From Gammaproteobacteria bacterium (GTDB lineage Bacteria > Pseudomonadota > Gammaproteobacteria > SZUA-152): a stretch of DNA of 64,000 bases. The notes below the pieces were generated by a model that searched no databases, was not told the origin of the DNA, and was given only the letters and a program-made list of their open reading frames with translations. The stretch spans positions 27,420 to 91,419 of the forward strand of contig DROS01000062.1 in the NCBI GenBank assembly GCA_011321815.1, in the 5' to 3' direction. Both the position numbers and the translations under genes were made by a program. Shown piece after piece: positions 4,164 through 12,506 of the stretch. The stretch's first letter is position 1. Every line of letters starts with the position of its first letter.

Positions 4164-4352
4164 ATATATTCAATCGTCATATTTTTGCGCACCAAAACCG
4201 GTGAACGGCGGTAACCGCCCCTAAAAAAATTAGTGGCCATAATGAATCTCTTTGGATATTCCGGCACAGGCTCCGCCGGAGTGGTGTTATTCATGTTGAC
4301 ACCCCCGCCAGCCCGCCTTAGCACCGGCTGTTGGCACTACGGGGTAGTTTAT

Positions 4353-5345
4353 TTAGCGTGACATGCTTATTTTTACGTCACTCACCGCTAACGCTTTTTT
4401 GTTACATGGCACAGCCGCTCTCCATGTCATGCTGAGCGTTAACTGGTTCGGTTCAATAACCAATGTTTCCAAATTGAATTGAGGAGAAAGTGAGTTGCCC
4501 ATTATGTTTACATCTGCATGTAACTGAATAAAAGGCAGTTCAAAATTGACAGTGCCACCGGGGTGCATATGGGTAATCTCTACAGACTCTCCACCCTTAA
4601 GAAAACCGGGATAAATCAAATCCGGATGCGCCATACTAAAAAAACGCTTGTCGAAATCCACAGGCAAATAGGGTGCCCGCTGAGCTTGCCAGGCTTCATC
4701 ATAAGTACCGGAAAAACCGGAACGGGGTAACCAGTGCGGACAGACAAACCCAAAACCGGCCGGCATGGGTCGCTGCCCGGTACGGACAATCAGGTTATCC
4801 GGATCTTCCAGATTGGGAAGCGGTATATCATTCATTTCAGATGACTTGCGTTTCCCGGCAAAACCACAGCCAACCGGATTTCGTACTTCTGTTTCCACAA
4901 TCTGTCCATCGACAATGTGCGCCCCGCCAAAAGCCTTTTCATAAACCATGGCCATGGTCCGGAAAGGTTGCGGAGACGAAATCCGTCCATCCTGCCAACA
5001 ACGATCACCAAAGACACGCACCGTTTTATGCACTTTTCCCACTGTCAGGCGGACATCCAACTGGCGCACATCCTTTCCGCCAGGGGCAAAGGCATGACCG
5101 AGCATGATAATGTCACTGCTTAATTTACCAATGTGGTAATCAGAAGCCTGTTTGATACTGGATTCACCCGGCTCACCCCAGTATTCATCACCTTCCAGCG
5201 GCGGTAATTGTTCATCGGCCAGGGTCCATTGCTTACCGATGATAAACGTGGCTTTAACTAACAAATAGAGTGTATCAATGGCCTCTTCATTGGGGAACAG
5301 AGCCATATTGGCGGCGAAAGGTGTGCGGTTATGAAGTTGTAACAT
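4353..5345 (-). CDS. DUF2169-family protein (T6SS VgrG-associated adaptor family); start assigned at internal Met (MLQLHNRTPF)
   Basis: N-terminal NRTPFAA...VKATF signature as remembered for DUF2169. Position immediately downstream of vgrG. The ORF track extends to 5411, but that would overlap the upstream gene. Confidence 0.55.
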   Translation of the reverse strand: MLQLHNRTPFAANMALFPNEEAIDTLYLLVKATFIIGKQWTLADEQLPPLEGDEYWGEPGESSIKQASDYHIGKLSSDIIMLGHAFAPGGKDVRQLDVRLTVGKVHKTVRVFGDRCWQDGRISSPQPFRTMAMVYEKAFGGAHIVDGQIVETEVRNPVGCGFAGKRKSSEMNDIPLPNLEDPDNLIVRTGQRPMPAGFGFVCPHWLPRSGFSGTYDEAWQAQRAPYLPVDFDKRFFSMAHPDLIYPGFLKGGESVEITHMHPGGTVNFELPFIQLHADVNIMGNSLSPQFNLETLVIEPNQLTLSMTWRAAVPCNKKALAVSDVKISMSR

Positions 5346-5370
5346 AAGCGATACGGTAACAGAACCAGTC

Positions 5371-5904
5371 CTAGTTGAGCCGTATCGAACCACCCAGAAT
5401 CCGGTTGACACCGGTTGAGCGCGTTAATAAATTTTTTCCACGGATTAAAATTTTTCCATCACGGGTTAAAATGATGCTTGACTCACCGCATTTCAGGACA
5501 ATTTTCTCTTTGGCCTCAAAAACAATTTTACTGCCGTCAACCATAACGTCATCAACTTTCAGATGCTCTTCCTGCCCGCTTTCAACGGCAACTTCTTCCT
5601 GTCCAAAGTTTTCCAGCATCTCTTGCAAAGGGCTACGGATCATCCCCATGATTACCGGATTTTGCAGATTACCACCTGCAAACAGCAGGGCAACTTGCCG
5701 ACCAATATGTGACCGGGCAAGCTCGAGCGTTGTTATCGCTTTTAATGAATGATCAGATGGATTACCGGAAAATTCGACAAAAGGGTTCCCCAGTTTATCA
5801 ATTGAAACCAAGGTCCCGAGAATAACTTCACCCGGCGCGACAGACAATAACGCAGGCGATGTCTCCTCGACGGGTTGAACTATATATGATTTTTCATCTT
5901 TCAT
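5371..5904 (-). CDS. small hypothetical protein (177 aa) with VgrG/gp5-like C-terminal beta-helix-type segment
   Basis: The C-terminal motif KIVLKCGESSIILTRDGKILIRGKNLL mirrors the VgrG C-terminus in this window (KIVMKNNGDITLSGKTINIKGSGNVVIKG). Lies between vgrG and DUF2169, with a 16 nt gap after vgrG. Confidence 0.5.
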   Translation of the reverse strand: MKDEKSYIVQPVEETSPALLSVAPGEVILGTLVSIDKLGNPFVEFSGNPSDHSLKAITTLELARSHIGRQVALLFAGGNLQNPVIMGMIRSPLQEMLENFGQEEVAVESGQEEHLKVDDVMVDGSKIVFEAKEKIVLKCGESSIILTRDGKILIRGKNLLTRSTGVNRILGGSIRLN

Positions 5905-11205: not shown

Positions 11206-12107
11206 TGTCCATTTTTGATCTAAATTGCACTGCCGGTAATAAGGGCGTATTAAGCGCAGTTATATTTTTAATGTCAGATTTTTTACAAACGGAGAGGGCG
11301 AACTTATGTATTGCGATGCAGCCAAAACATACATGCCAAATATTATTTTAATAATTTACCATTCCCAGCATGCATGCCAGCGATTTTTGGTGTAGCAGTC
11401 CCTGAATTTTCCGCTACAGGAAATCACCCGACAATTACCTTACGGCCTGCCCGTCTTCTTTATCACCCTTGTTGCTATAATGCTGGCCGCCCAGTAGCAG
11501 TAGAGGTAGCGCCATTATAATTGTAGTTTCTGGCTTCAGCAAAAATGGCCTGACCAAATTCACTCAGACTTTCAAATTAATGCGGTGCCAGCGCGATAGT
11601 CCGGTAAACCCCAGGATAACCAGTAGTCGCAAGTTTCTACAGATGATGACATTATCTGGTCTGCCTGCGCATCACCGGCAGAAATAATACCATTTGATTC
11701 AATCAGGGTTACACAACTTGTGTCACTCAACGAATCATCTATTTTTATAAAAAACCAAATTATGGCCTCAACATAGGCATTTTGTTGGTATTCATTATCA
11801 TGTTATTCAAGTGGAAAAGTCCTAATGGTCAGCGAATTCTCACCATTAACAATCGATTCAGAAACTGGTTTTTGTGGTGACGTTCGCCCTCTTGTATCAG
11901 ATATTAAATTCCAGAGAGAACATGGGTTGTTTATAACCGACATCCGCAAGCGAAGCATTTATAAATAACATTCCAGTTAGTAAAATAAAAAATACACTTT
12001 TTTTATTTTAGTGTTTCACTCTGTAGTGTTTTGCAGATTATTGCTTCTCATCATTTTCATTCGGCTTAAGCCAGCTCCAACGCTTTTCTTTTTTTGCCTT
12101 GATTTCC

Positions 12108-12401
12108 TCATAACTTGGTCAAAGTAACATCAGCCCCCTTAAACTCTACTGTATTCGGGAAATAGATACCTTTATCGTCATTGCCAAATTCATATACGGG
12201 TAACGGAGCCAGGGAAATCACGGAGCCCGGAATATCAACCTGAATATCGATATCCAACAGTGGTTTCGCGGTTAGTTTTATGCGGCAGTCATGTTCAACG
12301 TAGTTAGTGGTGGTAACGGCGTCGAAAACGATCCTGAATGATATTGGCGTGCATGCACGTATCTTTTTACCGATGCCCGCAATATTAACCAATAATTGCA
12401 T
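12108..12401 (-). CDS. hypothetical small protein (97 aa)
   Basis: ORF only. No recognisable motif. Lies between the ORF-free AT-rich region and tRNA-Pro. Confidence 0.25.
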   Translation of the reverse strand: MQLLVNIAGIGKKIRACTPISFRIVFDAVTTTNYVEHDCRIKLTAKPLLDIDIQVDIPGSVISLAPLPVYEFGNDDKGIYFPNTVEFKGADVTLTKL

Positions 12402-12506
12402 TAATCGCTAACATGGATTGTGGACACTTGCGACAGCATACGCGCATCAGTCAGGCTAGGGACAACACCCTGCCGGGGGTATCCGGAGGATGAAAACGAA
12501 GGGAAT

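Follow-up and report, generated by a model that had tools for sequence, protein, structure and literature searches.

The closest described counterparts of the locus reported here are type VI secretion system (T6SS) accessory modules. Sachar et al. (J Biol Chem 2025, PMC11883445) delineated a synteny type A, in which vgrG is accompanied by genes for a DUF6484 protein, a single-domain DUF2169 protein, a thiolase-like protein, an armadillo-like repeat protein and a PAAR-like protein of the DUF4150 PIPY type, and the same gene set was named Class II Tvp by Monlezun, Earl and Coulthurst (EMBO J 2026, PMC13373197). In Class II Tvp, the short TvpC protein (DUF6484) forms a trimer that mimics VgrG (PMC13373197). 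With TvpA (DUF2169) and TvpD (PRK06147) as partners, TvpC chaperones the PAAR/PIPY protein in a pre-complex until VgrG takes the place of TvpC (PMC13373197), and TvpA and TvpC have been described solely as PIPY/PAAR chaperones (PMC13373197, PMC11883445). In Vibrio parahaemolyticus, the toxin VP1415 is encoded at a site remote from VP1395-1399 (PMC13373197). Here we analysed positions 4164-12506 of a 64,000-nucleotide stretch, referred to as the window, from a Gammaproteobacteria bacterium (SZUA-152; assembly GCA_011321815.1, contig DROS01000062.1, positions 27,420-91,419 of the forward strand). We conclude that the region holds a degenerate member of this known, recently described class, ordinary in kind and informative in its history. 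In the reading that we favour, which we consider probable while leaving real room for doubt, it is a doubly truncated competition locus, built from a two-partner-secretion pair (TpsAB) and a Class II Tvp module, whose five surviving genes are under selection and provide parts for a T6SS encoded elsewhere.

The preliminary description of this DNA had recognised hcp, vgrG, a gene for a 177-residue protein, a DUF2169 gene and a TpsB gene in the region, and searches of Pfam and NCBIfam bore out these identities. All five genes lie on the minus strand:

11205..9316, minus strand: tpsB, an Omp85-family two-partner-secretion transporter with an N-terminal signal peptide (Pfam ShlB 1.6e-19, POTRA_2 1.1e-11)
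8777..8295, minus strand: hcp, the T6SS tube protein, 160 residues (Pfam T6SS_HCP 4e-33)
7900..5921, minus strand: vgrG, the T6SS spike, 659 residues (TIGR03361 1.6e-182; Phage_GPD, Phage_base_V, Gp5_trimer_C)
5904..5371, minus strand: tvpC, a DUF6484 protein of 177 residues (Pfam DUF6484 2.7e-18), starting 17 nt after vgrG
5345..4353, minus strand: tvpA, a single-domain DUF2169 chaperone of 330 residues (Pfam DUF2169 1e-92)

The 177-residue protein is TvpC, and the module accordingly belongs to a specific published class, for which a PIPY/DUF4150 partner is required (PMC13373197, PMC11883445).

We compared the contexts of the locus in about 20 lineages of related, uncultured Gammaproteobacteria from vents and sediments (loci are given L numbers below). 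In at least 15 independent lineages (L005, L007, L009, L020, L025, L027-L030, L033-L036, L047 and L130), the full locus reads tpsA-tpsB-hcp-vgrG-tvpC(DUF6484)-tvpA(DUF2169)-PIPY/DUF4150-TIGR02270(HEAT)-TvpD(PRK06147)-effector-immunity. The TpsA proteins of the relatives are giant, from more than 1500 to 3240 residues with a TPS domain, and are encoded directly upstream of tpsB; an intact TpsA gene occupies that position in 9 related lineages, and in L007 three small open reading frames (ORFs) lie between tpsA and tpsB. TpsB is encoded immediately upstream of hcp in all of the lineages, at least 13, in which the upstream side is covered. Judged from this conserved synteny, TpsB is no unrelated passenger; it is the regular upstream neighbour of hcp, normally following a giant TpsA. 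The T6SS proteins of the relatives have lengths of 160 (Hcp), 643-647 (VgrG), about 176-185 (DUF6484) and 330 residues (DUF2169). Next comes a 126-residue, stand-alone Tox-PAAR-like protein (PF13665, 8e-43), a family that we take to be equivalent to DUF4150/PIPY; its gene is directly 3' of tvpA in at least 17 related lineages, and PIPY comes after tvpA in all lineages but two, the species of the window and L026; in L026 it is a pseudogene. The arm continues with a 423-residue HEAT-like protein (TIGR02270, 5e-102), a protein of 349-358 residues that matches PRK06147 (TvpD, 2e-52), effectors that are Tle1-like or AHH-like, and immunity proteins of the DUF2931 or Imm11 families. In the ancestral locus, a pair for two-partner secretion was linked to a T6SS auxiliary module of the Class II Tvp or synteny A type.

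Against this layout, the region in the window is cut short at both ends. The two borders are marked by the following features:

11447..11666, minus strand: frameshifted 3' remnant of tpsA, the upstream truncation scar
4164..4352, no strand assigned: unique junction of 189 bp, from the stop codon of the hybrid kinase gene to that of tvpA, the downstream truncation scar

At the upstream end, positions 11447-11634 matched the end of the intact tpsA of L024 (3992-4182) in blastn with 74% identity over 192 nt (E 4e-27), and tblastx and tblastn gave matches to the TpsA C-termini of L020, L027, L007, L033 and L005 in two reading frames. These matches show that tpsA was deleted and that a frameshifted stub of about 190-220 bp was left. 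At the downstream end, homology to the kinase flanks of the sister species ends at 4173, 10 nt past the kinase stop codon, and homology to the T6SS clusters of the relatives begins at 4348, 5 nt past the tvpA stop codon. The 174 nt between these points are unique; among the fetched loci the junction was matched only in the same species and in its sister lineage, at 91.6% identity. The borders of the region are scars of deletion or rearrangement. Two events account for them: one deletion that removed tpsA except for about 190-220 bp of its 3' end, and a second deletion or rearrangement in which everything past tvpA was lost and tvpA came to be joined tail-to-tail to the hybrid kinase gene.

Of the genes that the relatives carry beyond tvpA, no trace was found in the 64-kb window when their proteins were used in tblastn; this covers the PIPY, HEAT, TvpD, effector and immunity genes, and specifically the Tle1-like, AHH-like, Imm11 and DUF2931 proteins. 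The sole match for a missing gene (E 0.007, at 51.2 kb) falls inside a kinase gene and was rejected as spurious. The preliminary description had also reported that tssA-M, PAAR, Rhs/toxin and immunity genes are lacking from the region, and both Pfam and tblastn agree: none of tssA-M, PAAR/PIPY, Rhs, toxin or immunity genes was found in 4164-12506 or in the parts of the window examined, which comprised a Pfam scan of the larger ORFs of 18.6-34.2 and 46.4-62.4 kb (ORFs of about 34.4-46 kb were left unscanned) and a tblastn search of the relatives' proteins against the whole window. Likewise, no T6SS core genes were found within 10 kb on either side in the related loci examined.

The truncated form is old. 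At least 10 assemblies, made from different samples, have this layout together with both scars, including those of a sister lineage (L012-L015, L038-L044) that is about 4-8% diverged from the species of the window at the nucleotide level. Because both scars are common to the two, the truncation must be old, and because both carry the same scars, all differences between the two lineages arose after it. To this extent, the gene order is invariant among relatives, a pattern that had been named beforehand as speaking against an island; it holds for these assemblies, and the next relatives carry the cluster elsewhere.

We used these post-truncation differences to estimate selection, comparing the window with L012, L013 and L015 and taking the non-coding junction (8.4% diverged) as the neutral reference. 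The pooled five genes showed 102 synonymous changes in 1304 sites and 24 nonsynonymous changes in 4561 sites (pS 0.078, pN 0.0053), which corresponds to an omega of about 0.07; omega for the flanking kinase was 0.08. The individual genes behaved alike, with 30 synonymous and 11 nonsynonymous changes in tpsB (dN/dS 0.10), 43 and 5 in vgrG (0.03), 10 and 3 in tvpC (0.09), 13 and 5 in tvpA (0.11), and 6 and 0 in hcp, the product of which has 100% amino-acid identity to that of the sister lineage. There is no frameshift and no stop codon in the 5.4 kb of coding sequence, and of the positions found invariant in 11-15 lineages, 97-100% are unchanged in TpsB, Hcp, VgrG and TvpA. The substitution pattern indicates that selection maintains the five retained genes and that they are not in decay, and since omega has been about 0.07 from the truncation onwards, they should still be functional. 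Relative to the next lineages, TpsB, Hcp and VgrG have 80-90% amino-acid identity with dS above 1, and the kinase is similar (83-85%). The cluster is therefore an old resident of the clade, because its divergence resembles that of the kinase and dS exceeds 1.

From selection only, we infer that the parts serve a machine encoded elsewhere. In this model, the five proteins would still work: Hcp and VgrG would supply tube and spike subunits to a T6SS core encoded elsewhere in the genome, and the TvpC trimer would template the PIPY/PAAR-TvpA pre-complex, which would then be handed to VgrG as in Class II Tvp. The PIPY-type tip and the effector would be encoded elsewhere, for which VP1415 of V. parahaemolyticus is a precedent, and TpsB would serve a TpsA encoded elsewhere. 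The preliminary description had left two possibilities side by side, that the cargo had been lost or that the module supplies spare parts. Each retains its share: the cargo arm was lost, as the relatives carry it after the DUF2169 gene, and the selection on the retained genes fits the supply of spare parts.

Several points weigh against this proposal. No T6SS core, PIPY/PAAR or TpsA gene was seen in the flanks or in the parts of the window examined. This locus (12 contigs) is the sole place where the exact Hcp sequence was found, so there is no second, identical hcp that would point to a main cluster. The estimate of selection is based on 126 substitutions between two lineages, and all genomes in the comparison are metagenome-assembled genomes (MAGs) or metagenome contigs. 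Decay of the arm is continuing in the clade, as seen in two close relatives, L026, with its PIPY pseudogene and nothing after it, and in L016, in which TvpD and the effector are lost; the clade may be losing this weapon altogether. Finally, TvpC is altered at 7 of 55 otherwise family-invariant positions, the tip included, which could reflect the loss of its PIPY partner, although this signal is partly shared with an allele of 76% identity found elsewhere.

Another explanation is that the tpsB-hcp-vgrG-tvpC-tvpA core is itself the selected unit and works without PIPY or a dedicated toxin, for instance with VgrG/Hcp delivered as the payload or required for the apparatus to fire with other cargo effectors, or with TpsB functionally coupled to the spike module. 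We consider it unlikely. The adjacency of tpsB and hcp is invariant in at least 13 lineages, purifying selection acts on all five genes, and the window and L026, with different breakpoints and in different chromosomal contexts, have been reduced to the same five genes. However, this adjacency is explicable by co-inheritance within one competition island, and the reduction in L026, which retains a PIPY pseudogene, is recent and may be plain decay. A literature search on coupling of TpsB to the T6SS turned up nothing specific and no published or structural reason that would link an Omp85 transporter to T6SS spikes, and TvpA and TvpC are known only in their PIPY/PAAR chaperone role (PMC13373197, PMC11883445). 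The related proposition that the five genes form a functional unit of a new sort, either a TpsB-T6SS spike coupling or a toxin-less use of the VgrG-TvpC-TvpA spike, seems to us decidedly unlikely.

We are equally sceptical of the idea that the module has become a non-functional relic, left without a role after the loss of its PIPY tip, chaperone partners and toxin and awaiting pseudogenisation. Such a state would agree with the absence of the defining partners of TvpC and TvpA from the window, the altered tip residues of TvpC, the lack of a T6SS core in view, and the stepwise decay of the same locus in L016, L024 and L026. It is difficult to reconcile with an omega of about 0.07 over 126 post-truncation substitutions, equal to that of the flanking kinase, with five ORFs that are full length in at least 10 assemblies, and with the conservation of family-invariant residues, while the adjacent non-coding debris has meanwhile become 17% diverged, with indels and a 140-bp deletion. 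A decay of TvpC following the loss of its partner was considered separately; several of its changes are shared with the 76% allele, the 3' half of these clusters is exchanged through recombination and recent dN/dS is 0.09, and the changes were not attributable to relaxed constraint.

The preliminary description had interpreted the region as an island at the neighbouring tRNA gene. The features next to that gene are:

11667..12506, no strand assigned: AT-rich, non-conserved debris between the tpsA remnant and the tRNA, including a 97-residue ORF
12507-12583, minus strand: tRNA-Pro(GGG), the right-hand border (ARAGORN, and Rfam at 61.9 bits)

The region adjoins the 3' end of the tRNA, its GC content is 8 points down, and every other merR-tRNA-Pro locus loses its homology to the window exactly where the tRNA ends on its 3' side. 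Moreover, in a distant relative (L055), the last 50 nt of tRNA-Pro (2312-2388) are repeated exactly 2.2 kb downstream (4521-4570), the mark of an integrated element, and because of this repeat tRNA-Pro can be taken to serve as an attachment site elsewhere. In the window, in contrast, the tRNA-side border consists of the tpsA remnant and fast-decaying debris with no attachment (att) site. As the preliminary description had itself noted, there is neither an integrase nor a tRNA-derived repeat: a 28-nt probe of the tRNA 3' end, with up to 3 mismatches allowed, found only the tRNA itself in the 64-kb window, no meaningful direct repeats bounding the region were found, and no integrase or recombinase was seen in the window. 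Between the tRNA and tpsB there are ORFs of only 97, 69, 52 and 51 residues, of which the family scan covered the 97-residue ORF and gave no integrase.

The distribution of the cluster speaks the same way. In all of the assemblies (at least 10) that represent the species and its 96% sister lineage, the cluster lies at the tRNA, with no presence/absence variation among them. Every related lineage examined has the cluster, at a housekeeping-like divergence and at other loci, such as prk/smpB or prk/scpAB. A search of metagenome contigs for the MerR gene gave 80 loci, all distant (at most 78% nucleotide identity), in which synteny always ends at the tRNA; L051, with a 94%-identical MerR, was considered as a sister species and rejected, as it belongs to an organism with 63-67% GC. 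With an old cluster at other sites in the relatives and borders that look like scars, the earlier interpretation did not hold: site-specific integration at the tRNA-Pro 3' end, with the orphan hcp-vgrG-DUF2169 module imported as a unit, is highly improbable, and the region, on present alignments, is not a tRNA-integrated island.

The composition of the region gives a similar picture. It was described as AT-richer than its flanks, and calculation agrees: GC is 0.433 in 4164-12506 vs 0.508 (1-4163) and 0.517 (12507-23400), and is thus not uniform. Inside the region, GC per gene is 0.41-0.48 and GC at third codon positions is 0.38-0.47, compared with 0.54-0.60 at third positions of the flanking genes. 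The change on the kinase side is gradual, from 0.48 at the tvpA end (4353-5345) to 0.50 in the 189-bp junction, near flank values. Low GC recurs in the window, with patches of about 0.42 at 23.4-29.4 kb and 46.1-60.3 kb, and 1-kb windows with GC below 0.45 make up 36% of its 64 kb. The cluster also lies 5-7 GC points under its flanks in L026, and cluster GC equals genome GC in low-GC relatives. Because the cluster has low GC in a related genome too, we do not read its composition as recent integration; AT-richness is a property of the cluster itself, perhaps from an old transfer, with no sign of recent insertion at the tRNA.

The debris beside the tRNA (11667-12506, 840 bp) showed similarity to no relative's locus examined, and the 97-residue ORF within it (12401..12108) had no Pfam or NCBIfam match. 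In the 96% sister lineage, this stretch has only 83% identity, with indels and a 140-bp deletion inside the 97-residue ORF, compared with 96-99% for the genes. An Rfam scan of 3.9-13.4 kb (E up to 0.1) gave nothing besides the tRNA, and in a consensus scan for promoters and terminators the counts were close to shuffle expectation, with the exception of the hcp hairpin.

The nearest relative with long contigs is a sister species (GCA_026982555.1, L047), whose kinase is 83% identical to that of the window and whose locus lies on a single 61.8-kb contig. This contig carries rne, rluC-HAD-sppA-prk and then tpsB-hcp-vgrG-tvpC-tvpA-TvpD-PIPY-AHH-Imm11-AHH-Imm11-p188-HEAT, followed beyond the cluster by IS200, tmRNA, smpB, SNF, ratA, rnfH, bamE, fur, crp, hlyD and the convergent kinase. 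Some 16 kb thus separate the cluster from the orthologous kinase, the two are convergent as in the window, and the site is not tRNA-Pro. This cluster (L047:10001-18075) ends at an IS200-type transposase beside tmRNA and smpB. TpsB, Hcp and VgrG of L047 are 80-87% identical to those of the window, but TvpC is only 60% and TvpA only 68% identical. Because the L047 cluster is a mosaic in both identity and gene order, the cargo half, from tvpC-tvpA on, appears to be exchanged between lineages as a cassette.

Other relatives show further contexts and stages of reduction. In D96SM.bin.23, the cluster lies between prk and scpAB. L026 shares its prk-tpsB border with L047, and its PIPY pseudogene is followed by no further cluster gene and then by scpAB. 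L016, without TvpD and effector, has kept Imm11. L024 (MAG D100SM.bin.11) has kept tpsA, and its HEAT gene is followed by genes typical of integrative and conjugative elements, namely those for a ParA-like ATPase, DUF2857 and AcaB (12894-19744). The tpsA-tpsB spacer of the L016/L024 lineage contains a 111-nt element with 83% identity to a stretch that lies close to a DUF4329 gene at a different locus in another relative (the two sequences being L018:98-208 and L023:1896-2005); it may be a small repeated element. In one assembly of the 96% sister lineage (L013/L042:12397-17579), YgaP-like, Crp-family, SirB and other genes lie beyond CCP_MauG, where HDOD-GCV_T-sdh is expected; the difference begins some 5 kb away from the cluster and reflects a misassembly or else a rearrangement at strain level.

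The retained proteins were examined individually. Hcp scores above the Pfam gathering threshold for T6SS_HCP, with an NCBIfam TIGR03344 score of only 39.6 vs a cut-off of 58.9. VgrG reaches 607 bits in TIGR03361 vs a cut-off of 186, and its gp27-like, gp5 OB (oligonucleotide/oligosaccharide-binding) and beta-prism parts are present. It has no C-terminal effector domain, and its C-terminal tip is identical to that of the relatives. A 48-nt tandem duplication at 6182-6283 (2.1 copies, 87% match), common to the 96% sister lineage, adds 16 residues to the beta-prism (TETIKNNKTIxVGxDH, twice) and gives a protein of 659 residues vs 643-647 in the relatives.

The spacer between hcp and vgrG is expanded and constitutes one further feature:

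7901..8294, no strand assigned: hcp-vgrG spacer of 394 nt, which holds a terminator-like hairpin of hcp (8251-8282)

The hairpin, just 3' of hcp, has a perfect 15-bp stem followed by a T-rich tail, in line with the terminator that had been reported there. The length of 394 nt compares with 644 nt in the 96% sister lineage (L012:6384-7027), which has a 235-bp insertion with a short duplicated motif on both sides, with roughly 130-260 nt in most other relatives, and with some 1.1 kb in L033. Conservation reaches 96.5% in the 287 nt next to vgrG vs 91.6% for the neutral reference. A 64-residue ORF there has a frameshift in the sister lineage, which makes a regulatory role of this part likelier than a coding one.

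The AlphaFold2 (AF2) model of TvpC, with a mean predicted local distance difference test (pLDDT) score of 71, comprises an OB domain, which scores about 90, and a beta region at the C-terminus. Its top Foldseek matches are all central spikes (PVC, VgrS, AFP, R2 pyocin, P2 gpV and VgrG1), each with a probability of 1.0, and the model thus depicts TvpC as a mini-spike that would mimic VgrG. The C-terminus, SIRLN, is unique among 120 relatives, most of which end in SVQVN, and several of the changes in TvpC are shared with the 76%-identical allele found elsewhere. For TvpA, we use the length of 330 residues as called in public assemblies; DUF2169 spans residues 24-309 (46-331 of the 352-residue ORF that was scanned), there is no pentapeptide-repeat extension, and the protein matches the solved DUF2169 structure PDB 8VTH (2.6e-28). 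It has more than 2000 homologues. The best 120 are nearly all exactly 330 residues long and 61-98% identical, and the named ones among these come from uncultured Gammaproteobacteria. In species-representative genomes, TvpA was found in MAGs of Thioalkalispiraceae, Ectothiorhodospiraceae, Chromatiales and Acidiferrobacterales.

The two other low-GC patches of the window were also inspected. The second (23400-29400, GC 0.42) lies between a pgm-side gene and lysS and includes, 15 kb from the region, a class-3 lipase gene without a signal peptide (27063..28016, minus strand; Lipase_3 6.7e-23). The products of its neighbours at 24131..25003, 25791..26738 and 28715..29317 are secreted or outer-membrane-like and have no family matches. 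The lipase was considered as a Tle-type cargo with immunity-like neighbours and set aside, as it gave generic lipase matches only. The third patch (46146-60300, GC 0.42) directly follows tRNA-Leu(CAA) (46059-46145) and is thus another tRNA-adjacent AT-rich block; it contains genes for glycosyltransferases, several hybrid histidine kinases, response regulators and a VWA protein, and no T6SS genes.

The locus amounts to a natural experiment on T6SS accessory proteins that have been characterised only in 2025-2026, in that purifying selection has continued to act strongly on TvpC and TvpA for a long time since the loss of the neighbouring PIPY, TvpD, effector and immunity genes. If these chaperones serve a tip encoded elsewhere, Class II Tvp parts would be exchangeable in trans; otherwise, they would have a second role. 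What makes the locus mildly interesting is this retention by selection of PIPY chaperones without an adjacent PIPY gene, together with the TpsAB pairing. The combination of TpsA/TpsB with a Class II Tvp module is a recurrent architecture in uncultured sulfur-cycle Gammaproteobacteria of vents and sediments, and a conserved joining of the two was not found in the literature searched; the pairing is conserved and apparently undescribed. The decay series of the locus should be useful for annotating MAGs of this kind and for studying the loss of competition weapons. It also holds a lesson for annotation, in that an AT-rich block beside a tRNA is not necessarily an integrated island.

A comparison with known systems places these features in perspective. 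With tRNA-linked integrative islands, the region has in common its position at a tRNA 3' end and a GC content below that of its flanks; it differs in having no integrase, no att repeat and no presence/absence polymorphism among the assemblies (at least 10) of the species and its sister lineage, and the cluster of the relatives lies at non-tRNA sites. Two-partner secretion and contact-dependent inhibition loci have the arrangement tpsA-(small ORFs)-tpsB, as in the Burkholderia-type bcpAIOB. The POTRA and ShlB domains of TpsB, the giant TpsA encoded upstream in the relatives and the three small ORFs of L007 correspond to this type, whereas in the window tpsA is a 3' remnant only, and any toxin or immunity function of the relatives' TpsA is hypothetical. 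Auxiliary (orphan) hcp-vgrG clusters of the T6SS are exemplified by Aux1 and Aux2 of Vibrio cholerae. As in these, hcp and vgrG here lie apart from any tssA-M core cluster, an adaptor, effector and immunity gene follow in the relatives, and the 3' half with the cargo behaves as an exchangeable cassette, as seen in the sister species; in contrast, there is no effector/immunity pair in the window, and the adaptor is of the DUF2169/DUF6484 type, not DUF4123 or DUF1795.

The closest correspondence is with Class II Tvp, of which PA0095-PA0099 of Pseudomonas aeruginosa (VgrG1b-Tse7), the pef cluster of Proteus mirabilis and VP1395-1399 of V. parahaemolyticus are examples. The order of vgrG, the DUF6484 gene (short TvpC) and the single-domain DUF2169 gene (TvpA) is the same, the TvpC model has an OB fold and a short beta-prism like those of VgrG and gpV, TvpA matches 8VTH, and PRK06147 (TvpD), ARM/HEAT (TIGR02270) and DUF4150/PIPY are present in the relatives of the locus. 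The window differs from these examples in having no TvpD, ARM/HEAT, PIPY, effector or immunity gene. In the relatives, PIPY is a stand-alone protein of 126 residues and the toxin is encoded by a separate downstream gene, unlike the PIPY-toxin fusions Tse7 and PefE, and the whole module is preceded by a TpsA/TpsB pair.

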